Shown: piece after piece, positions 19,157 to 64,000 of the stretch
Layout of the letters: each line of letters opens with the position of its first letter
Position numbering within the stretch: position 1 is the stretch's first letter
Assembly (NCBI GenBank): GCA_026770705.1
Contig: JANJGN010000021.1
Span: 98,394,001 to 98,458,000, forward strand
Direction of reading: 5' to 3'
DNA from: Isurus oxyrinchus
Lineage: Eukaryota
DNA: 64,000 nucleotides
The notes under the pieces: generated by a model
What the model was told of the DNA's origin: nothing
What the model saw: the letters and a program-made list of their open reading frames with translations, nothing else
Database searches by the model: none
Made by a program: the position numbers and the translations under genes

Positions 19157-21990
19157 ATGGGACTATATATACTTTCTCAGATAGAGGCAATTTACTATCC
19201 TATCCTCGCAATTGTTGATATTTTTGGTAAATTATACCAATAATTCTTAGTCTGTCAGGGTATGGCTGCATTACTGCCCTTGCAGCCAGTCCAGCAATGT
19301 CATCTATTCAGGCACTATAGTTCAACTTAATTTCACTTCATAGTTTTCTTCCTTTACTTTGTTGTTACAGTGTCTACAGGTTGCATAACCATTGCGTATT
19401 TCACAAAGGAAAACATTCAATGTTTTTGAAGCATTTATGTTCCCAACACAGAGTTTTAAGTCATTATACAATACACGTCATGTACATCTTCGTGAATCTC
19501 GTTTACAAAGTTGAAACCAGGATGATTTGCAGTTGTCTCACATTTCAGTTAATGTAAATTGTCAATGTGCTATAAATCCCTTGCTTTCAACTTGTATCTA
19601 TGAATGAACTATATCATTCTTTTTTACCCCACACTAATCCCTTCTATTAGGTGCTCAGTTTATCTCCCCATTGAACCGTCTTAAATACCAGTTCTCAGTT
19701 TTTAACAGTCACTCTCTGGCTGCGATGTTTTAGATTGGGTTCTAACTGACATTCAGTCCTGTGTTTGATGTGAGGTGGATTATATCTCTCTTTCGAATTG
19801 TACAGCTCAGGTCAACATTTTCTGTCTCTCTGTTTAGAAATAGCATAATTTTGTGAACAGAATATAAGAGAATTGCAATTCAAATAGTTGACATGCGCTC
19901 ATCTTTAAACTACCAAAATAAGAAGAAATTCTGCAGATATTAGAGTTTCATTTAATTAAACTATTTGAGGAATGTAACAGGAGTGTACATTCAATGAAGG
20001 GATCTCGGCTCATTGCCCTGGTTTGTTGAGATTATTGAGTGTGCATTTCTGAATCTCCCATTCCTTGGTGGAATTCGCTGCTGCAGCATTAGAATTTCCC
20101 CACTGCTGTAATTAGAGGGACCACTCCTGCCACGATTCATTATATGAAAAATCGATTTCCGGCACCTTTCGTAAATGTTAAAAGATATATGAAAATATTT
20201 CATTTCGCAGAAAATTATTCATGCAACGAAGTCGATCATTTACGTTAAGGGAAAATGTGAAACAACGGCAAATCATTCTGTATTCAACATTGTATAAGAA
20301 ATCTCAGAAGATGTACACGATGTGTACTGTTTAATGAATTGAAACTTTTGTGTGGGGAACATAAAACAAGAGCAGGATTTTAAAACTGCGGAGCGTTCAG
20401 TTAGTCGATGCAACACGCAACAATGTATATTCTACCTGCTGTATTAGTGTTTTACAATGTTAGGACACCTGATTAATTGATTGATTCCTTGGCTCGTTGC
20501 TTCTGTGATTCCTATACTGAGTGAATCACTGGGGCAATTTTGACTACTCGCTCTGGTATAAGGAGAGACAAATGATCGACCACCTCTTCTACATTTCTTT
20601 CGATGTTAACTTCCCTTCAGTTCAATAGCAAGCAGAATCGTGGAAGAATGATCATGAACAGCTGATCCCATATCGCCGCTTCTCAACTCTCCCGATTATA
20701 TTTCCACTGAAGTCACTGGGGAGGTAAAATGTGCTGCCTCCTCAATTTTATCCGTTTACACTATTACACAAAGGCAAGATCTACCGCTGATCACCTCAAC
20801 TTACTCCATGTGTGTTCCCAATAATTGTAAGAAAAATTATCTAATTGTATATGCAGGACCGAGTTACCTGGAAATATTCACTTCAAAAAGCATCAAATAT
20901 TTACTTTTTCAGAAACATATTTTTGATATAAAGTGAAGTGGATGGGGTATGAAAGCGGCTGTTGATTCACCAACAGCGGGTTCATGCGAATCCTGAAACT
21001 AAATGAGCCCTATTGCAAGGAGCAAACAGGAACTGGGTTGAGCGACTGCACAAATGATTTCGTGTTAATTTCTATATAACATATTCTCAAACTGAGTTTT
21101 CCAGTGAGACGGGAGTAAGATTTTTTTCACTTATGCCCCTCAGAGGCAATCTATTGGCGATTGCGACTCTCGTGAAAAGTGCGGACTTTCTAAATGTATC
21201 ACTCGTTACATGGTGGCCATGGCAACGACATATCCATTGGTGATAATATTTGATGCATTATTGTATGAGATGAAAGAGATATTCATTTCTCATATACATT
21301 CTTAGATTACACTCCTGTCTGCCGCCTCAATTTAGCGCCGACTTTTGCAGTTATTGGTTGTTCTGTCTGGTTAACGGTCGCTTTCACCATTGATCGATTC
21401 ATCAATATTTGTTGCCAAAAATTGAGAGTCAGATATTGCACTGAAAGAACAGCGGCCATGGTTATAGCCACTGTCTTTGGAGTGAACTTTGTCGAAAACA
21501 TTCCAATTTACATTAAAAGCGAATCCCTGGAAATTATGAACAATACAGCACGGTTCTGCCGTTTAAAATCACGCTCCTCGAATTTACCTATATGGGTAGC
21601 ACGTTTCTTCATTGACATTACCTTAACATCATTGGCAACATTGTTGATGGTTGTCCTGCTCAATGCTCTGATCATCAGTCACATTATACGGGACAGTTGG
21701 GTGAGGAGGGGACTCCAGGGAATCAAAAATCGTGAGACTCCCAATGATCCAGAGATGGAGAACTGAAGAAATTCTATTATATTACTGCTGGCCGTTTCTG
21801 GCTGTTTTATGCTATTCTGGATGGTAACCTTTGTACATTTCATGTGTACACATTTTACACGTATTCCCTCAATGCTGACAGATTACAATGATCCTTTCGT
21901 CATCATGGAGCACGCTGACTATATGTTAGAGTATTTGAGCTCTTGTGCAAACACATTTATCTATACAGTGACTCAGGTTACATTCAGAGT
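19157..21990 (+). pseudogene. GPR139/GPR142-like class A GPCR pseudogene, copy 1 (exon 1 19157-19226, exon 2 from 21146)
   Basis: Exon 1 MGLYILSQIEAIYYPILAIVDIF ends at a phase-1 GTAAAT donor. Exon 2 has KCITRYMVAMA, SVWLTVAFTIDRF, CCQKLRVRYCT and LSSCANTFIY. Disabled by a 2-nt deletion at ~21170, a second frameshift, TGA at 21764-21766 and truncation by a CR1 at ~21990. Confidence 0.9.
19375..20441. mobile_element. Fossil DNA transposon / MITE with ~190-bp terminal inverted repeats in the GPCR intron
   Basis: 19435-19560 (ATGTTCCCAACACAGAG..TGTACATCTTC..GATGATTTGCAGTTGTCTCACATTTC) is the imperfect reverse complement of 20240-20365. Confidence 0.65.
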
Positions 21991-23688: not shown

Positions 23689-24766
23689 GTAACTTGTTAA
23701 CGATTGTGACCCTCTCTCGTGGAAAGTACAGTCTTTCTGAATGCATCACTCGTTACATGGTGGCCATGGCAACGGCAGACCTACTGATGATAATATTTGA
23801 TGTAATATTGTATGAGATTAATGACATTTATTTCTCATATACATTCTTAGATTACACTCTTGTCTGCCGACTCAATTTCACCCTGACTTTCGTAACCATT
23901 TATTATTCTGTCGAGCATATTTCTTACTAGCATACAAATCCTCAAGTCAGATCTCCCTCACTGCTAGTCCAGTTCACAGCTATCAAGCATCACTGTTGCA
24001 TGGTAAATTGTACAGATGTGTGTCTTCAGCCTATGCAGAGTACTGCTTTAAAAGTACTTGACCCCTGGGATACTATATCACAGATTGAGATATGTACAAT
24101 CATAGCTTTCACCTTTGATCGATTCCTTGCTATCTGTTGCTAGAAACTGAGAATCAAGTATTGCACTGAAAGAACAGCGGCCATAGTTATGGCTACTGTC
24201 TTTGGAGTGTTCTTTGTGGAAAACATTCCAAAATACTTTGCAATTGAACCTTTGGAAATTATTAACAATACAGAATGGTTCTGCCGTGTAAAATCAAGCT
24301 CCTCGGGTTTACCTATATGGGTGGCATATACCTTCTTTGACGTTACATTAACACCATTGGCACCTTTTTTGATTATTGTCCTGCTCAATGCTCTGACAAT
24401 TAGTCACATTGTACGGGCTAGCCGAGTGAGGAGGAGGCTCCAGGGAATCAAAAATGTTCAGACTCAAAATGATCGCGAAATGATGAACCGAAGAGAAACC
24501 ATTATATTATTTCTAGCAGTTTTATACTGCTCTGGACAATAACAACGGCGCATTTCATATGCACACACTTTATAGGAATTCCCTTATTGCTGACAGAGTA
24601 CAATGATCCTTTCGCCATCATGGAGCGCACTGGATATATGCTACAGCGTTTAAGCTCATGCACAAACACATTTATCTATGCAGTTGCTCAGGCGAAATTC
24701 AGAGAAGAATTGAAGAATCTCATTAAATATCCCTTGACTCATTGTTCAGTGCGTGATTTCATATAA
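23689..24766 (+). pseudogene. GPR139/GPR142-like GPCR pseudogene, copy 2 (exon 2 only)
   Basis: Acceptor CTCATAG then GNLLTIVTLSRG..YMVAMATADLL, AFTFDRFLAICC, LSSCTNTFIY..AKFREELK. Has a ~190-bp insertion at 23912-24103, TAG at 24141 and a frameshifting deletion near 24515. Confidence 0.9.
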
Positions 24767-47130: not shown

Positions 47131-49408
47131 GAGAATGTGTAGGTTTATTGTGATAACGTGTAAACAAAGTGCTAATTATGTAAGGATGCTGCAATAAAAT
47201 CTGCGCACTCTGATTTGTGTCTAAAGTTGGCTAAACAACTAAATGGTAGATAAAGTACCTAAACTTCAATTAATTTTATTTGATGAGACTCAGACAATAA
47301 ATGCTGCTCCATGAATTGCTAAATGCTCACGTGTCCTCAGAATTTGCCTATTTGCCTGGACAGAGAGTGAATGAATTGAGTGAAGAAAAAAATCCACCCT
47401 AATTATTGCAGAGTTTATTTTGTGCAAATTATTTTTTAAGCCTGTGTTTCTCATTTCTTTCACTACTCCCTCACTTGCAGCAGCCAATGTGGTGACCATT
47501 GTGATCCTCTCCCGCGGAAACTGTGGCGTCTCCAAATGCATCACTATCTACCTGATGTCCATGGCAGCGGCGCATCTACTGGTCCTGATAGTTGATGTGA
47601 TTCTTTATGAAATGAATGAAATTTATTTCCCAAATTCCTTCCTGGACTACATTCCTGTCTGCAGTCTGAATTTCTTTTTAATTTTTGCTTCAATTGAATG
47701 TTCCGTCTGGTTCACTGTAGCATTCAACATTGATCGATTTGTTGTCATTTGTTGCCAAAAAATACAAACACAATATTGCACTGAAAAAACTGCAGCAGTG
47801 GTTGTAGCGACAATATAGGGACTGGGCATCCTGGAAAACATCCCAATTTACATTTAAACCTCGAATAACAATTGACAACATATCACGGTTCTGCAATGTA
47901 AAATTAAGCCTCTACATTGTACCTAAATGGGTTACATTCTTATGGGTTGACATAGCTTTCATGCTTTTGCCCCCTTTCTCTTGATCCTGACATTGAATGG
48001 CCTGACCATCAGGCACATTTTACTATCAAGCAGGATTAGAAGAGGTCTCCGAAATAGTGGCTGAGACCAAGAAATAGAAAATCGAAGAAAATCTATCGTT
48101 TTACTGCTGGCCATATCTGGGAGCTTAATACTGTTATGGCTGGTAACTTTTGTTCATTATATATGTGTACAGGTTATGGATATTCAATACCTGCACACAG
48201 ATTACAACAATCCTTTCACTATTATGGAACAAACTGGATATATGCTGCAGCATTTGAGTTCCTGCACAAATACCATTATTTTTGCAATATCCCAGAGTAA
48301 ATTCAGAGACGAGTTGAAGAATTTGTTTAAATATCCAATGACTCTAATTACCAAGTTAGTGAAATCATGTAAAGCCCTGAGTGTAATAATGACTGACCAC
48401 AAAACTTGAGACTCCTTTCCATTTTTACTGTGCAAAATAGACAAGACTACACCAGACATGTTACACGCTCCACACAATTCTCTATTCCATGAAGGTCAGG
48501 CGTAATAAGCGGCCGGTCTGCTATCCCTGCTCAGGTGGACCATCCCTCTCTGGAAGAGGCGAAGTCAGTGGACCGTATGTTTGCAGTTATGTCCCACTTC
48601 GATGTTTAACCTGCTCTCGAAAATATTCCCCACATCCATTTGTAGCTTGCAGTTACTTTAACTTTCCACTCGACATTCTGGAGATGTAGTTCACTTGCCG
48701 CTGGTGCCTCAAACACGCTTTGCAGATTAGTCAGAGGTTATGGAAAGCGTCTCATTCTAATTCCCACTGCAGTTAAAGGGTTAACAGCAGAGGGGTTACA
48801 TTGGCGTCGCTCCCCTTCACTTAGGGAGAGAGAGAAGCAGACTCGGGATTGCGGATTCGGCTAGTGAACCGGAGTATGTGAAAAGGATCATGCTCGACTG
48901 GGCGTCCAGTGATTGAATATTTCCGTGTCCACTGCTTCAAAGCACAAGTGGAGACTTTTACCTGAGGCCAATGTTCAAGCTTCTGCTAATTAAGAACGTA
49001 TAGATGTTCACAAAAGATATTTTAATTGCCAGAAATGCATTTATTCCGCACTATCGTTATATATGTAGCGGTAGCTTATAGGTCAGACTTGGCAATGTTA
49101 AGCAAAGGAATAATCGTTTAATAAATTGAAGCAGAAAACATGTGTAAAATATTTATGCAATTACATTAGATTTCGTCGCAGAGCAATTGATTCACAGACT
49201 ACTTTCAGTGTGTTCTTGGTTCCTATTCAAGTCTGGCGTTTGACCCTCGCAGGTACTGGTTAAACAATGTTGTAATCTAGGGAGCGAAAAATAAGTGTTA
49301 GATAATCCAGAGTTGAAGTGCAGAGCAGTGTAGTGAATGAAGTCACTTTGCCTAAATCAGCAGCCCGCCCACCATTCTTAAAAAAAAATAATTAACAGGC
49401 AATTGAGC

Positions 49409-55222: not shown

Positions 55223-55327
55223 CTTTTCGCCTTCTCCACTTTACATACAACAGAATAATGATTGCCAGTAACACCAGTACACCAGTGACAATCAGCCCCA
55301 CATGTTTGCCTTCCTTCATTTTTCCTT
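55223..55327 (-). CDS. MHC class I-like heavy chain, connecting peptide/transmembrane exon
   Basis: TTTCAG acceptor, GTAAG donor, 105 nt, phase 1-1: (E)GKMKEGKHVGLIVTGVLVLLAIIILLYVKWRRRK. Confidence 0.85.
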
Positions 55328-57300
55328 CTGAAACATGTTAGAAAGACGTTTTAATATAATTTTATATATGAATAGACTATATATATATATGGATACCTAT
55401 GACACAGCTCATGTAATAAGAGAATATGGAGTTTAATATGAATTGTGCCCAAACCAAAGATTGCATTATATTAGATTTAGACAGAAGGAGGAGGAGGAAG
55501 AGTAAGGGTGAGGATATGTGAGGAGGGAAAGTGAGAGAGGAGGGGAAGGAAGGGGCCGGCAAAAGGAAAAGCAAGTCAGAGAGGGAGTGGACAGGGCAGG
55601 AAGGAGCGGGAGCAGATGGCTGGCAAGGAGTGAGATAGGGGAGGTAAGAGTCGTTTGGCCAGAAAAGGTTCCTCAATTCCAGGATGGGATCATATCAGCC
55701 TAAACCCATTCATGGCTTTGCTCAGTGGGCGGGGGCACACAGCCTGAAATGTTCATGGCGGGAGGGAAGGCAAAAGACGAGTTACTCTGCTTTGTGGTTC
55801 CAGGATATAGTGGGGTGAGGGGAAGAGGGAGAGGCGCAGAAGCTGCTCAGTTTTGTTTTTGCAGTGGAAATCCCTGATTACTGCTCAGTGTATAAGGGAA
55901 GCCCTGAATAGATAATGATCATGGTTGTGCGGCAGGGAGGCGAGGCCGGTTGTCCTGTTCCCTTTGGGAAAAATGGATCAGTGATGGGATTTAGAGGCCT
56001 AAGTTTCTACGTGGTTTGTGGTGGACAGTTATGGGAGGATCTGAGGGATGGGAACAAGGGCCAAGGTCAGTGGTAGGACTGTTCACTTGGATGGGGAGGG
56101 TGTGGGGGAGGGCTGGGGCTCAGTGGGGAACAAAGAGCAGTGGCCAAAACACTCCTTCATGAGGGGTCTGGTCCCAAGGTATAGTATCTGCTACATGAGG
56201 AAACAAGGCAAAAGGGTGAACAGTGGTGGGTGGGAGTGGAGGGTAATTCCCTGAAAGTTTCCTCATGGTCAAAAGCAATGGTCCTAGTGAATGTGGGAAA
56301 ACTGGGATATTGATCGAGCTCCTGGTGAACATAGGCTTGGTCAGGGACAAGAGAGTTTGGCTTATTGACTGCTAAGTGGGGCAAAAATAATGGTCCTGGT
56401 GAATGAGAGGAAGGAAAAAGACAATGACCCTGGTGAATGGGGGCAGTGAAGAGGCTGTAAATGTGGCTCGTGGTGGTGGTGTGGGGGGGGGTGGGTGGAT
56501 AAATGCAATTTGCCACAGATATGAATGCGTTGCTGGAAGGTCCATGGAAAAAGATTCTGGTCACGGTGCCTATTAAGGGAGGGGCAAAGCTTGCAGAGCC
56601 CGTTATTGCTTGCTTATTGGCTGTGGGGGAGGGGGCAGAAGGGAGGTGTAAGAAGCCCTTATCTGTGGGTCTGGTGAGAGTAGCAATGTGAGGGGGCAAT
56701 TTAATAGTTGATGTCTAGTATGCCAGCTCCCATGTCTGAGGGATAGAGCTTCTTTAACCACTGTCGCAGGTCTCTGTGTTGGAACTTTTGGGGTTGGGGC
56801 TCAAGGTGTAACGTTCCTTGCCCTAAAAATGTGAAATACACAATTATCTACATGAAATTTGCATTTCATTCAAATAGTTTAAACTTAGCTGCTTTTACCT
56901 ATACTGCTCCACACTGACATGCAGTGGCCAGAGCCAGTAACTGCATACAGACTCCTTCTGTGAAGACTGTACTAACGCCACTATCCAGCAAGGGTCGCCT
57001 TATGCTGTGGTGTTAAATTAGGTGGTACTCTTATCATGTTCACTTCCGTCACAATGACGCTGTGTTCACAACTGCGTGCAGCAGTTTTGAAATCTTCGCT
57101 CACCTTTTTCAAGGTAGGCAGATAGAGAAATATAGAGAGACAGATGGAAATATGATTAGATGAAAGTGTGTATGTGCAGATAATAACGCAGATGCGCAAT
57201 GAGCCGGTACCTTCACCTCCGATTGCTTAACTAGAGTGATTAGTGTGAAACGACTGGGGCCGGCACGCGTTGGACGACAGCACCAGAAAATTGATCTTAC

Positions 57301-57567
57301 CCCAGGAGACAGTCTTCCCACCCGGCAAGCTGCTGTGCTCAATATGGCAGGAATACTGTTTCCCGTCATACGGGTCAAATTGAAGGGTTTTCGTTAGTTG
57401 ATACGTCCCATCATCATTGGGCAGTAAGCCGGTCGAGTTGGTCTCGGGGACACGTTCTCCGTTCTTCAGCCAGGTCACACGGATGGCCTGCGGGTAAAAT
57501 CCACGCACAATGCACTGTAGAAAGCAATTATGCCCATCTCTGGCAATGATTGACACCTCGGGAGGAA
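57301..57567 (-). CDS. MHC class I-like heavy chain, alpha3 (Ig C1-set) exon
   Basis: CAG/GTAAG bounded, 267 nt, phase 1-1: VPPEVSII..LQCIVRGFYPQAIRVTWLKNG..LPNDDGTYQL..YSCHIEHSSL..VSW. Confidence 0.95.
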
Positions 57568-57867
57568 CTGGACGATAGAATGAAAATTATTCTCAACTTC
57601 AACGTAAATCGGACTTTTCATTATGAAATCAAGTGGGGGGGGGCGGTAATTGGCGGGGTGGGGGGGGGGGGCAGACTCGATGGGCCGAAGGGCCTCTTCT
57701 GCACATGTGTGATTCTGTGAATTGTAGCCTTTGCTGCTAATGTAAAATAGGCAATATCGAACCAGCCCCGCCTGTTAACGAGTGTGCCCAACAGAAAAGG
57801 ATCTAATATCACTTACTGTACACTAACGGCGAGCTTTAAGATTACCCCTGGGCTGTTCTGAACTTAC

Positions 57868-58143
57868 CTTCTCTGGTTAGGGATGTATTCCCAACTGAAT
57901 AGTATGTCCACCAAAGTTCCACGCAGTCCTTCTCTAACAGGCTCTTGAAATACTTGTTCATTTTTTTTTCTTTATTCCACTTGACCTCTAATTCCTGAGC
58001 TGCTGGAATATGTGCAGTCCAAACCAACGTGTTTTTATCAAAACTGAATGCGTACCTCCCATCAAGAGCAAACTTCAAAATCCCTCCACTCGGCTTTGTA
58101 TCAGTCAGCTCACAGCCAAACAGTCCTTGTACGTAATGGATAC
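57868..58143 (-). CDS. MHC class I-like heavy chain, alpha2 exon
   Basis: TTTTGCAG/GTAAG bounded, 276 nt, phase 1-1: GIHYVQGLFGCELTDTKPSGGILKFALDGRYAFSFDKNTLVWTAHIPAAQELEVKWNKEKKMNKYFKSLLEKDCVELWWTYYSVGNTSLTRE; both disulphide cysteines present. Confidence 0.95.
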
Positions 58144-58990
58144 CTGCAAAATTAATTCAATCGATGAATGCTTAAAAACATATCGCATCTGTTCTCACCT
58201 AATCTGAGAATTTCACTTATTTTCTCGTCACTTCATACCCAGTCATTTTTTTCTTTACAAGTGAGTTCAGTATAGAAAACAAGTATCATTACTTGGGGAT
58301 GTAGAACAGTCGGCACCAAATTTAAGCCCAGAACTGTGAGCTCCAATCTTTTCCTTTTCTCCGCCGGTGGTCGTTTCCTTAAACAATTTCCTTGTCGTGA
58401 TTTATTCAGTTCGATTTTAAGTAATTCTGTAATAGCTGCATCAGTAAAATTGCAAATTATGATGGAAAAAATCCTAATTTCTACCGTTGTTCTGTGTGTC
58501 CCTTATTAACAACACAGCAGCCACGGAAGGGAAGCATTCATTGGCGAGACTGTCAAAGATCGACGTAACTTCCAAAACCTCTCACAATCTCCACGCACCT
58601 TGTCTATGTCTGTAAATATGTGCTACTTTTCGAGTCTGTCTTCATAAATATAAAAACTCATTCTTGTGAATCTCTCTTCTATGGGATTAATATCCTTGCT
58701 GTCGTAGGTACTCAAAACCGCATGCATACAAACTCTGTCCTAGCCATTGTCTTCTTTAGGCCACCGTCATATGCAATAAATACCCTTAGGCCAATTATCG
58801 ATTGAGGGGTAAAGCAGCACTTTGTTGCACGGGTGCCACTTGAAATTGGTATTTCGTTTGATGTCAGAACTTAAAATATATCCTGGGAGTTAAGTTTCAA
58901 TTTAGCTGGGCTACCAAACGACTGGTAGCGGGAAATCCGTCAGTTATACTCCCAGGTCCATCATAGCTTGAAGTGAATTCAAATGGAACG

Positions 58991-59865
58991 TGTAAGAGTT
59001 AATCAGGGACTTCTATTAGTAAAACAAAAGTCAGCAGAATTTTCCAGGTGAACCATGTACACCTTGGGGCAATATTAGCAGAACTCTCCAGAAAGAACTT
59101 TAAGGTCACAAGGGATTAACTGGTTAGGAGACATAAAGGGGGATGAGGGTAAACAGATAAAGACAAACAGTGCCAGGGATGGAGCCAGGCTCGAATGAGA
59201 TAAAGTGGCCTTGCTTGGTAAGGAAAAGATGCGTATGTGGGACTGAGAATCACAGAATCTCACAGTGCAGAAGATGCCCTTCGGCCCATCGAGTCTGCAC
59301 TGATATGTGATAAACATCTGACCTACCTACCTAATCCCATTTACCGGCACTTGGCCCATAGTCTTGAATGTTATTACGTGCCAAGTGCTCACCCAGGTAC
59401 TTTTTAAAGGATGTGAGGCAACCCACCTCCACTACCCTCCCAGGCAGCGCATTCCAGACCATCACCACCCTCTGGGTAAAAACGTTTTTCCTCACATCCC
59501 CCCCTAAACCTCCTGCCCCTCACCTTGAACCTGTGTCCCCTCGTGACTGACCCTTCAGCTAAGGGGAACAGCTGCTCCCTATCCACCTTGTCCATGCCCC
59601 TGATAATCTTGTACACCTCGATCAGGTTGCCCCTTAGTCTTCTCTGCTCCAACATCTGCTTATTATGCAATTATGTACTCACAAAATTAGAATTCGAAAA
59701 TAACACAATATCCAAGTGACTATATAAAAAAGATGGTTTTGCTGTAATTGGTGGAGTTCTGTTTTAGCCAGTCTAAGACAGACATTCCATGAGTTTGCTT
59801 GAATAAAACAATCATTAACCTGTACCTGAGTCTCCTGTGGTCGATTCTGAGAAAACACCACAACA
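58991..59865 (+). mobile_element. 5' LTR of a second, related ERV (interrupted by a CR1)
   Basis: Begins TGTAAG, TATATAA at 59721, AATAAA at 59802, ends CAACA at 59865; shares CCTGTACCTGAGTCTCCTG with the LTR at 27860-28323. The 5' boundary is tentative. Confidence 0.7.
59246..59652 (-). mobile_element. CR1 3' end inserted in the LTR
   Basis: LEQRRLRGNLIEVYKII..GHRFKV; close to 32760-33160. Confidence 0.9.
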
Positions 59866-59868
59866 ACC

Positions 59869-59886
59869 TGGCATAGTTGGCAGGAT
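59869..59886 (+). promoter_or_regulatory. Primer-binding site, tRNA-Ser
   Basis: TGGCATAGTTGGCAGGAT against TGGCGTAGTCGGCAGGAT (complement of the vertebrate tRNA-Ser 3' end); both mismatches are CpG transitions; 3 nt after the LTR end. Confidence 0.8.
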
Positions 59887-60065
59887 ACTCGCCTCAAACT
59901 ATCAGAGCGACGCTGCATAACGGGTGAGTAATGTTTGTTTACAACTTACAGTTAGTGCATTAAGCCAAGCCGAGGACGGTCCAGTCGAGCATCAAAGAAT
60001 CTAAAGAGGAACTCAGTACAAGAAGCACTGAGAGAAGAGAGATTACTAGCGTAGGGGCAAATCAA

Positions 60066-63000
60066 GTGCTAGTGGTATCCACGCAGGGGCCATGGCCGAA
60101 TCTGCTCAGGGGCTGTAGCCAAATCCGTGCTGGTGGTATCCGTGCAGGGGCAATAGCCAAATCCATGCAGAGGCCGTAGCCAAATCCGCGCTGGTGGTAT
60201 TCACGCAGGGACCATAGCCAAATCCATGCAGAGGCCGTAGCCAAATCCGCGCAGGTGGTATCCACGCAGGGGCCATAGACAAATCCCCGCTGGTGGCATC
60301 CACACAGGCTCAAAGACAAATATGTGCTGGTGGTATCCACGCAGGGGCCATAGCTAAATCCGCACAGGGGCCGTAGCTAAATCCATTCTGGTGGTATCCG
60401 CGCAGGGGCTATAGTCAAATCCGCATAGCAGCCGTAGCCAAATCCACACTGGTGGTATCCACGCAGGGGGCATGGCCAAATCCATGCAGGTGGTATCTAC
60501 GCAGGGGCCGTAGCTAAATCTGCACAAGTAGTATCCGCGCAGCAGCCGTAGCCAAATCCACGCTGCTGGTATCCGCGCAGGGGCCATAGCCAAATCTGTG
60601 CTGGTTGTATCTGTGCAGGGGCCATAGCCAAATCTGTGCTGGTGGTATCTGCGCAGGGGCCATAGCCAAATCCGCGCTAGTGGTATCCACACAGGGGCCA
60701 TGGCCAAATCCGCGCTAGTGGTATCCACACAAGGTCCATAGCTAAAATCCGTGCTGGTGGTATCCACACAGGGGCCATAGCCAAATCCAGGCATGGGCCG
60801 TAGCCAAATCCACGCTGGTAGTATCCACACAGGGGCCATAGCCAAATCCATGCATGGGCCGTAGCCAAATCCACGCTGGTGGTATCCACACAGGGGCCAT
60901 AGCCAAATCCGCGCAGGGGCCATAGCCAAATCCGTGCTGGTGGTATCCACGCAGGAGCCATAGTCAAATCCGTGCTGGTGGTATCCGCACAGGGGCCATA
61001 GTCAAATCCACACTGGTGGTACCCACGCAGGGGCCATGACCAAATCCGCACGGGTGGTATCCACACAGGGTCCATAGCTAAATCCATGCTGTGGTATCCA
61101 CACAAGGGCCATAGTCAAATCCATGCTGGTGGTATCCGCGCAGGGGGCATGGCCAAATCCGTGCTGGTGGTATCCACACAGGGGCTGTAGCTAAATCCAT
61201 GCTGGTGGTATCCACACAGGGTCCACAGCCAAATCCACACTGGTGGTATCCGCGCAGGGGGCATGGCCAAATCCACGCTGGTGGTATCCACACAGGGGCC
61301 ATAATCAAATCCGTGTTGGTGGTATCCGCACAGGGTCCATAGCCAAATCCACACTGGTGGTATCCGCGCAGGAGGCATGGCCAAATCCGTGCTGGTGGTA
61401 TTCGCACAGGGTCCATAGCCAAATCCACACTGGTGGTATCCGCGCAGGGGGCATGGCCAAATCCGTGCTGGTGGTATCTGCACAGGGGCTGTAGCTAAAT
61501 CCGCGCCAGTAGTATCCGCGCAGGGGCTATAGCCAAATCCGCGCAGCAGCCATAGCCAAATCCACACTGGTGGTATCCACGCAGGGGGCATAGCCAAATC
61601 CGTGCAGGTGGTATCCACGCAGGGGCCATAGCCAAATCCATGCTGCTGGGATCCGCGCAGGGGCCATAGCCACCACGCAGGGGGCATAGCCAAATCCGTG
61701 CAGGTGGTATCCACGCAGGGGCCATAGCCAAATCCGTGCAGGTGGTATCCACGCAGGGGGCATAGCCAAATCCGTGCAGGTGGTATCCACGCAGGGGCCA
61801 TAGCCAAATCCATGAAGGTGGTATCCACGCAGGGGGCATAGCCAAATCCGCGCTAGTGATATCCACACATGGTCTGTAGCTAAAATCTGTGCTGGTGGTA
61901 TTCACGCAGGGGCCATAGCCAAATCTGCACTGGTGGTATCCACGCAGGGGCCGTAGCTAAATCCATGCTGGTGGTATCCGCACAGAAGCCATAGTTAAAT
62001 CCGTGCTGGTGGTATTCACGCAGGGGCCATAGCCAAATCTGCACTGGTGGTATCCACGCAGGGGCCGTAGCTAAATCCACGCTGGTGGTATCCACACAGG
62101 GGCCATAGCTAAATCCGTGCTGGTGGTAACCGCACAGGGGCCGTAGCTAAATTTACGCTGGTGGTATCCACACAGGGGCCATAGCCAAATCTGTGCCGGT
62201 GCTATCTGCACAGGAGCCATAGCCAAATCCTCACGGGTGGTATCTGCGCAGGGGCCATAGCCAAATCCGCGAAGGTGGTATCCACGCAGGGGCCATAGCC
62301 AAATCCACGCTGGTGGTATCCACGCAGGAGCCATAGCCAAATCCGCACGGGTGGTATCTGCGCAGGGGCCATAGCCAAATCCACGAGGGTGGTATCCACG
62401 CAGGGGCCATAGCCAAATCCGCAAGTGTGGTATCTGCGCAGAGGCCATAGCCAAATCTGTGCGGGTGGTATCCACACAGGGACCATGGCCAAATCCGTGC
62501 TGGTGGTATCCACACAGAGGCCATAGACAAATCCGTGCGGGTGGTATCTGCGCAGGGGCCATAGCCAAATCCACGCTGGTGGTATTCACACAGGGTCCAT
62601 AGCTAAATCCATGCTGTGGTATCCACACAAGGGCCATAGTCAAATCCATGCTGGTGGTATCCGCGCAGGGGGCATGGCCAAATCCGTGCTGGTGGTATCC
62701 ACACAGGGGCTGTAGCTAAATCCATGCTGGTGGTATCCACACAGGGGACATAGCCAAATCCGCGCAGGGGCCATAGCCAAATCCGTGCTGGTGGTATCCA
62801 CGCAGGAGCCATAGTCAAATCCGTGCTGGTGGTATCCGCACAGGGGCCATAGTCAAATCCACACTGGTGGTACCCACGCAGGGGCCATGACCAAATCCGC
62901 ACGGGTGGTATCCACACAGGGTCCATAGCTAAATCCATGCTGTGGTATCCACACAAGGGCCATAGTCAAATCCATGCTGGTGGTATCCGCGCAGGGGGCA

Positions 63001-64000
63001 TGGCCAAATCCGTGCTGGTGGTATCCACACAGGGGCTGTAGCTAAATCCATGCTGGTGGTATCCACACAGGGTCCACAGCCAAATCCACACTGGTGGTAT
63101 CCGCGCAGGGGGCATGGCCAAATCCACGCTGGTGGTATCCACACAGGGGCCATAATCAAATCCGTGTTGGTGGTATCCGCACAGGGTCCATAGCCAAATC
63201 CACACTGGTGGTATCCGCGCAGGAGGCATGGCCAAATCCGTGCTGGTGGTATTCGCACAGGGTCCATAGCCAAATCCACACTGGTGGTATCCGCGCAGGG
63301 GGCATGGCCAAATCCGTGCTGGTGGTATCTGCACAGGGGCTGTAGCTAAATCCGCGCCAGTAGTATCCGCGCAGGGGCTATAGCCAAATCCGCGCAGCAG
63401 CCATAGCCAAATCCACACTGGTGGTATCCACGCAGGGGGCATAGCCAAATCCGTGCAGGTGGTATCCACGCAGGGGCCATAGCCAAATCCATGCTGCTGG
63501 GATCCGCGCAGGGGCCATAGCCACCACGCAGGGGGCATAGCCAAATCCGTGCAGGTGGTATCCACGCAGGGGCCATAGCCAAATCCGTGCAGGTGGTATC
63601 CACGCAGGGGGCATAGCCAAATCCGTGCAGGTGGTATCCACGCAGGGGCCATAGCCAAATCCATGAAGGTGGTATCCACGCAGGGGGCATAGCCAAATCC
63701 GCGCTAGTGATATCCACACATGGTCTGTAGCTAAAATCTGTGCTGGTGGTATTCACGCAGGGGCCATAGCCAAATCTGCACTGGTGGTATCCACGCAGGG
63801 GCCGTAGCTAAATCCATGCTGGTGGTATCCGCACAGAAGCCATAGTTAAATCCGTGCTGGTGGTATTCACGCAGGGGCCATAGCCAAATCTGCACTGGTG
63901 GTATCCACGCAGGGGCCGTAGCTAAATCCACGCTGGTGGTATCCACACAGGGGCCATAGCTAAATCCGTGCTGGTGGTAACCGCACAGGGGCCGTAGCTA
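60066..64000. repeat. 38-bp minisatellite with 1851-bp higher-order duplication (runs off window end)
   Basis: Consensus GGGGCCATAGCCAAATCCGTGCTGGTGGTATCCACGCA; ~60900-62149 recurs at ~62751-64000 (identical ORF translations offset by 1851). Confidence 0.97.

Follow-up and report, generated by a model that had tools for sequence, protein, structure and literature searches.

Organization of the gene

The DNA stretch analyzed here, C21:98394001-98458000 of the 5.0-Gb Isurus oxyrinchus genome (64,000 nt, hereafter the window), carries exons of an MHC class I gene on the minus strand. The six exons of this gene, once joined, encode a class I protein of 332 amino acids with one stop (Table 1). The original prediction had placed three in-frame exons with canonical splice sites and no stops at 55223..58143, and these limits proved to be exact exon ends. 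The three exons, coding for alpha2, alpha3, and the transmembrane segment, are each preceded by AG and followed by GT, are in phase 1 with lengths divisible by three and free of stops, and constitute half of the six-exon gene. Three more coding exons were added to them: the leader, 39 kb upstream, the alpha1 exon, 20 kb upstream (the gap between alpha1 and alpha2 spans 19.4 kb, and the leader is found 19.2 kb further), and the last exon, located inside the window 5.9 kb downstream of the transmembrane exon.

Table 1. Exons of the class I gene and class I-related loci on the same contig; numbers without prefix are window positions.
Feature	Position	Strand	Remarks
Exon 1, leader	C21:98491120-98491048	minus	73 coding nt; beyond window end
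Exon 2, alpha1	C21:98471800-98471540 (L044:3800-3540)	minus	261 nt; beyond window end; Y7, Y59 kept; K84; Cys at 31
Intron 2, part in the window	58144..64000	minus	whole intron 19,396 nt
Exon 3, alpha2	58143-57868	minus	276 nt; joint 57567/57868 in contigs of runs X1, X7; C101-C164, K146, W147, Y171 kept; Y123A, T143L, Y159L, D122Y, Q115K
Exon 4, alpha3 C1-set domain	57567-57301	minus	267 nt; non-conserved extra Cys; joints in X1, X7
Exon 5, connecting peptide, transmembrane helix, basic stop-transfer stretch	55327-55223	minus	105 nt
Exon 6, coding part	49276-49260	minus	17 nt; joint 49276/55223 in X1, X7; tail end D-Y-N-I-V-stop, a YxxPhi tyrosine motif
3' UTR after exon 6, poly(A)-type hexamers	49122, 49045, 49026	minus	
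UAA-like gene	C21:66.13 Mb		label by eye against the available part of Supplemental File 10 (PMC10751288)
Class II	C21:79.6-80.9 Mb		
Beta2-microglobulin	C21:80.18 Mb		
UGA	C21:98.44-98.49 Mb	minus	
Sister class I gene	C21:98556701-98541000 (L051-L052)	minus	about 50 kb upstream of the UGA leader
UFA	C21:98.91 Mb (alpha3; L087)		matches 8GM8 at 1.4e-32
UDA	C21:98.93 Mb		groups with QGX07421; alpha1 reads as 'Gici_UDA' in the available part of the supplement
Multicopy family	C21:98.97-99.33 Mb		
UBA-like genes	C21:99.6-100.3 Mb		

To locate the alpha1 exon, a profile built from nine alpha1 exons of this genome was searched against the window and the next 200 kb; two alpha1 exons matched, and the nearer one is that of Table 1. 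No alpha1 exon was found inside the window at 58.2-60.1 kb. An alpha1-like stretch noticed by eye at about 58.6-58.8 kb was discarded because it contains stops and has no profile match, and a receptor-looking open frame at 58276-58509 on the plus strand gave no match to a GPR139-like query. The part of the alpha1-alpha2 intron at 60060-64000 consists of GC-rich tandem repeats of 38 bp, 23/61-bp variants included, with a higher-order period of 1851 bases; the long open frames within it are by-products of the repeat.

Contigs from public runs join the alpha2, alpha3, transmembrane, and last exons at exactly the predicted sites in two of four runs (X1 and X7); the contigs of X2 and X3 do not cover these exons. 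At the loose ends of contigs, alpha1 continues into alpha2 in three of four runs (X1, X7, and X9) and into the leader in two of four (X7 and X9), and none of alpha1 is contained in X14. The library type of the runs is not on record, and X1 is flagged as 'probably DNA'. Because the joints skip GT-AG introns, three of them at the predicted sites in the X1 contig, and because alpha2 and C1-set searches found no intronless copy in the genome, the contigs are read as cDNA. A transcript with leader and alpha1 had been looked for as the mark of a complete gene, and the spliced contigs contain both. The gene is intact and spliced. The X1 contig equals the genome in alpha1, alpha3, the transmembrane region, and the tail, and X7 and X9, which carry another species label and stem from two studies, have seven alpha1 differences in common; with regard to polymorphism, these contigs represent few individuals and drop rare variants. 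In the 3' UTR, roughly 95 bases past the stop codon, X1 has a joint with GT-AG ends (48982-49165) that removes 182 bases and takes out all three poly(A)-type hexamers, which X7 retains. This joint is possibly an alternative 3' UTR splice.

Identity of the gene

The first PDB match of both alpha1 (1.7e-38) and alpha2 (4.9e-38) was chain 9CH4_A, leading the next chains (9.1e-11 and 4.7e-14, respectively) by more than 20 orders of magnitude; alpha2 matched PF00129 at 8.5e-11. The entry, released 2026-03-18, is titled 'Crystal structure of shark nonclassical MHC CLASS I, UGA', and three beta2-microglobulin chains (including 9ch4_B) are present in the crystal. Compared by eye, its heavy chain reads as 'Gcirratum_UGA' in the available part of Supplemental File 10 (PMC10751288). 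Modeling used the basking shark ortholog P0001, which is 295/332 (89%) identical to the I. oxyrinchus protein; the model (pLDDT 85.7) superimposed on 9CH4 with a Z score of 29.5 and an rmsd of 1.6 over 267 residues, the next match having a Z score of 26.8; another P0001 model, from an alignment of five sequences, was poor (pLDDT 60).

A profile search returned 57 matches, comprising 17 shark and ray proteins with E <= 1.6e-127 and 53-100% identity to the basking shark protein, a fused model as the 18th, and a second group at about 40% identity. The 17 UGA proteins come from sharks, skates, sawfish, and stingrays, and no chimaera UGA protein was returned by this search. In the alpha2 tree (57 rows, 92 columns), the I. 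oxyrinchus protein falls into a clade of 17 shark and ray rows with support of 100/99, and the ectodomain tree (49 rows, 270 columns, quick method) likewise has a clade of 17 rows with support of 100. The I. oxyrinchus protein sits next to white shark XP_041069644, which is identical at 320/332 residues. The UGA clade holds P0098 and not the named nurse shark row itself; P0098 shares a 90% cluster with skate P0013, whose alpha1 is, by eye, 'Lerinacea_UGA' of the available supplement bar one residue. The lineage, which the original prediction held could not be assigned by eye, is now assigned by 9CH4 and the trees: the gene is almost certainly the ortholog of nurse shark UGA, a non-classical MHC class I gene, and is the copy of a known gene in a further species.

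UGA is single-copy in this genome among the class I exons found. Just one of 22 own-genome alpha2 exons, the UGA locus, lies inside the UGA clade of the alpha2 tree, the 22 being drawn from the genome matches with one match left out. Likewise, a single near-identical match was obtained among 12 alpha2 genome matches (next 42%) and among 61 C1-set genome matches (next 52% or less), a count that is a lower bound since the genome searches score best candidates only. Database proteins of UGA type number 10 in the skate Rhinoraja and three each in sawfish and sawshark, and those of the sister-gene type number 11 in Heptranchias, in contrast to the 'single or low copy' stated in the available part of the review PMC12562908.

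With just two ectodomain exons, the window by itself could be mistaken for a fragment of a gene or for a W-category beta chain, and a W-category chain was considered for this reason. According to the available part of PMC10751288, W-category molecules have two ectodomains, and in elasmobranchs their alpha and beta chains are encoded by gene pairs that lie outside the MHC. The W-category beta chain was rejected because three ectodomain exons are spliced together here, within the MHC, and the upstream alpha1 and leader exons spliced onto alpha2 speak equally against a fragment. Clustering with UAA was also looked for, and both the alpha2 and the ectodomain tree separate UGA from the UAA-like gene at C21:66.13 Mb. 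It is therefore practically inconceivable that the gene is a fragment, a W-category chain, or an allele of classical UAA.

Genomic neighborhood

Within the MHC, UGA belongs to the class Ib cluster, with UFA and UDA close by. The layout of C21 fits that given in the available part of PMC10751288, where the class Ib cluster is named with UDA, UEA, and UFA. The labels UAA-like, UBA-like, and UEA of the neighbors were assigned by eye or by position. The available main text of PMC10751288 names UFA, and UGA was seen only among its query files; no primary UGA paper was found in the literature searched, which omits most subscription journals. A genome search with PF16497 gave one weak match elsewhere and nothing at the UGA locus.

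The sister gene upstream of UGA has a leader, an alpha1-alpha3 part of 269 aa free of stops, and an exon for the transmembrane segment, and it is about 40% identical to UGA. It forms its own clade of nine shark and ray rows in the trees. Its orthologs have F7, H59, and F93, a groove hydropathy of 0.96-1.37 (five rows), and no tyrosine motif in the tail, and the best PDB match of one of them, P0022, was UGA. No match by eye was seen between the sister gene and the named rows in the available part of Supplemental File 10 (PMC10751288).

Just downstream of UGA, on the plus strand, the window contains three broken copies of a GPR139-like receptor with stops and frameshifts (21171-21988, 23697-24739, and 47384-48409). 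The X7 contig of UGA extends past position 48900 by 517 bases, a length that would bring it, on the opposite strand, to where the third copy ends, and the little skate database model P0018 is UGA fused with a GPR139-like receptor.

On C16, a chromosome-sized contig other than that of the MHC, a class I gene belonging to the multicopy (UEA/UCA-type) family was observed near a zinc-finger gene (C16:53762651-53775200, plus strand; L096-L097). It has a leader-like exon and open alpha1, alpha2, and alpha3 exons, whereas the available part of PMC10751288 reports no class Ib gene outside the MHC in the elasmobranchs surveyed. Several C1-set exons were also found at C102:240000-451000, and one of these, L089, resembles the row 'UHA' in the available supplement by eye and may possibly encode a W-category chain.

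The antigen-binding groove

Residues were numbered as in HLA-A2 by eye from the HLA-A2/shark alignment in the available part of Supplemental File 10 (PMC10751288). We compared 18 UGA rows, namely the I. oxyrinchus protein and 17 chosen database proteins, about one per species, with isoforms and extra copies excluded. The original prediction had read nine residues as kept (H93, Q96, C101, D119, W133, K146, W147, C164, and Y171) and four as replaced (Y123 by A, T143 by L, Y159 by L, and D122 by Y), and the alignment bears out all of them. Among the nine residues that we take to be the conserved anchors of the peptide ends, five are identical (Y7, Y59, K146, W147, and Y171), position 84 is conservatively a lysine, and three are lost (positions 123, 143, and 159). 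T143 and Y159 are lost in 18/18 UGA rows, and the five identical residues are kept in most rows. Six of the nine anchors thus remain usable, namely the five identical residues and the basic residue at 84. These are more than a pure lipid binder needs, which counts against lipid as the ligand.

Over the 39 positions that presumably line the groove, the mean hydropathy is 0.71 in the I. oxyrinchus protein and 0.37-1.11 across the 18 UGA rows. The corresponding values are 0.26 and 0.20 for the UAA-like and UBA-like genes of the same genome, -0.52 for UDA, -0.04 and -0.14 for carp class I, and 0.11 for a sixth non-UGA class I row, so that the two lowest UGA rows (0.37) stand only slightly above the UAA-like gene. 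The UGA groove is hydrophobic, with a lining greasier than in peptide binders. The lining is identical to that of white shark at 39/39 positions and to that of basking shark at 38/39. Classical class I genes are not known to show such identical groove linings. Conservation of the groove relative to the rest of alpha1-alpha2 was 0.82 versus 0.76, which is not significant (permutation p 0.08).

The coexistence of peptide-end anchors and a greasy floor raises the possibility that UGA presents lipopeptides or short amphipathic ligands, with the end pockets holding a short peptide and the floor an acyl chain, like chicken YF1. The five anchors kept in most rows are in line with such ligands, and the best non-self fold matches of the P0001 model include YF1 structures (Z 25.4-26.0), some with N-myristoylated/N-palmitoylated ligands. 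However, among the best 50 fold matches YF1 ties with the ordinary, peptide-binding chicken BF2 at Z of about 26, and the fold match therefore does not discriminate. The loss of Y159 and T143 throughout the UGA rows and the lipids reported as comparable to those of CD1d in the available part of PMC12562908 also weigh against lipopeptides, which we consider improbable as the ligands of UGA. The same 50 matches included no CD1 chain. In a wide fold search, chicken CD1-1 scored 24.2, tied with ZAG, H-2Kd, and HFE, and human CD1d scored lower at 21.9. As modeled, the backbone resembles CD1 no more closely than it does BF2, YF1, ZAG, or HFE.

Y122 and K115 are fixed in 18/18 UGA rows (D122Y and Q115K) and are also found in 9CH4; as that crystal contains beta2-microglobulin, these residues do not prevent pairing. 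Their fixation would suit a class I-fold carrier or receptor without a T-cell role, comparable to FcRn, HFE, ZAG, or EPCR, in which the lipid would be structural or cargo and the tail would serve uptake or transcytosis. A single-copy gene conserved in sharks and rays with little sign of polymorphism, and the lack of T-cell data on UGA in the available literature, would agree with this role. Yet UGA has remained a neighbor of UFA and UDA in the class Ib cluster of the MHC, and its likeness to FcRn and HFE is no more than that of the general fold, so that such a carrier appears distinctly improbable.

The N-glycosylation sequons NTS and NST foreseen for the gene are present, and alpha1 adds two more (NMS and NQT). 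The aromatic-rich helix end LWWTYY is likewise present in I. oxyrinchus but only in part a trait of the lineage: its second W occurs in 6/18 rows, and nurse shark has neither W. The extra alpha3 cysteine (HNCFLQC) is also where it was predicted, and it is shared by the white, basking, and whale sharks as well as by 9CH4 of the nurse shark. The disulfide-linked dimer that had been suggested on the basis of this residue is not supported, as the column contains W in 11/18, C in 4/18, and S in 3/18 UGA rows. Because the codons for W, C, and S are one base apart, drift could account for this variation, and because the cysteine lies four residues before the canonical one on the same strand, it would point inward by strand alternation. 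A second spare cysteine, not noted before, at alpha1 position 31 is kept in 16/18 rows, and a free-cysteine trait of the lineage, if any, would be this Cys31 and not the alpha3 residue. A dimer linked through the alpha3 cysteine is accordingly very unlikely.

The cytoplasmic tail

A YxxPhi motif is found in the tail of 14/18 UGA rows and in 0/5 sister-gene tails, where the single pattern match in a sister row falls in alpha3. It reads YNxV/I or YSVV in sharks, ending in Val at the extreme C-terminus, and YQNI, YENI, YQTI, or YESI in rays. Of the four UGA rows without the motif, three are database models whose C-termini differ and one has YSLT. Both the terminal Val of the shark motif and the rows lacking it count against CD1-like traffic. 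In CD1b, c, and d, YXXZ tail motifs serve endosomal traffic, as stated in the available part of PMC11481681.

Proposed function of UGA

We propose that UGA is a CD1-like class Ib chain that pairs with beta2-microglobulin, carries lipid, and cycles through endosomes, a reading to which we assign a probability of roughly 0.68. The UGA heavy chain would fold with beta2-microglobulin, as in the crystal of the nurse shark ortholog, and a lipid would fill the hydrophobic groove before the complex arrives at the surface. The tyrosine motif of the tail may then mediate uptake into endosomes, where lipids could be exchanged, and UGA-lipid complexes might be displayed to innate-like T cells. Taken as a whole, the mechanism from pairing through lipid loading and endosomal passage to T-cell display is reasonably probable. 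The available part of a 2025 review (PMC12562908, section 2.1) reports, from crystal and mass spectrometry data given as a personal communication, that UFA and UGA bind lipids, which are described as comparable to those of CD1d. The ligand of UGA is likely lipid rather than peptide, lipid binding itself being reported second-hand for UFA and UGA. This agrees with the original prediction of a class Ib molecule, possibly with a non-peptide ligand, as do the UGA orthology and the hydrophobic groove.

It would be a bolder and rather unlikely proposal that UGA is an ancient true relative of CD1 caught halfway, combining most class I peptide-end residues with a floor of the lipid type and, encoded by a small exon of its own, a CD1-type sorting tail, and that together with UFA and the still greasier, motif-less sister gene it constitutes a compartment-split set of lipid or lipopeptide presenters like mammalian CD1a-d. 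The UGA lineage bears on whether the presentation of lipids goes back as far as that of peptides, a question on which we found little in print. The named UGA lineage and its deposited structure were already known, and the present analysis adds one more shark species. Usable but incremental additions are the six-exon plan, the conserved tyrosine tail, the old motif-less sister gene, and the cysteine conservation.

Comparison with known class I molecules

Across alpha1-alpha3, the closest known molecule, nurse shark UGA (9CH4), is about 70% identical (71-72% in the case of the basking shark ortholog) and, counted by eye, identical at 59/86 residues of alpha1. Both proteins have Y122, K115, L159, L167, C31, the alpha3 cysteine, and the fold in common, and both genes are MHC-linked and low copy. 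They differ in that the I. oxyrinchus protein lacks Cys63 of the nurse shark alpha1 helix, has WW instead of LK at residues 168-169, and has A/L instead of I/F at residues 123/143; it is a lamniform-type sequence.

UAA (6LUP) and UDA share with UGA the class I exon plan, the fold, the chromosome, and probably beta2-microglobulin as a partner. However, UAA is 32% identical to UGA, which is without T143 and Y159, whereas in UDA both residues are retained and the groove is polar. UFA (8GM8) is named together with UGA as CD1-like and low copy in the available part of PMC12562908, and it is placed in the UDA/UEA class Ib cluster in that of PMC10751288, where orthology of UFA to CD1 is called hard to assess. 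It is a separate gene in this genome, and 8GM8 has 28% identity and a Z score of 21.1 to the P0001 model. With CD1 (human CD1b/c/d and chicken CD1-1), UGA has in common a hydrophobic groove lining, a short tail with YXXZ, reported lipid ligands, and probably, as in the 9CH4 crystal, beta2-microglobulin as a partner. In contrast to CD1, to which it is 22-26% identical, UGA retains five of the class I peptide anchors as well as a basic residue at 84.
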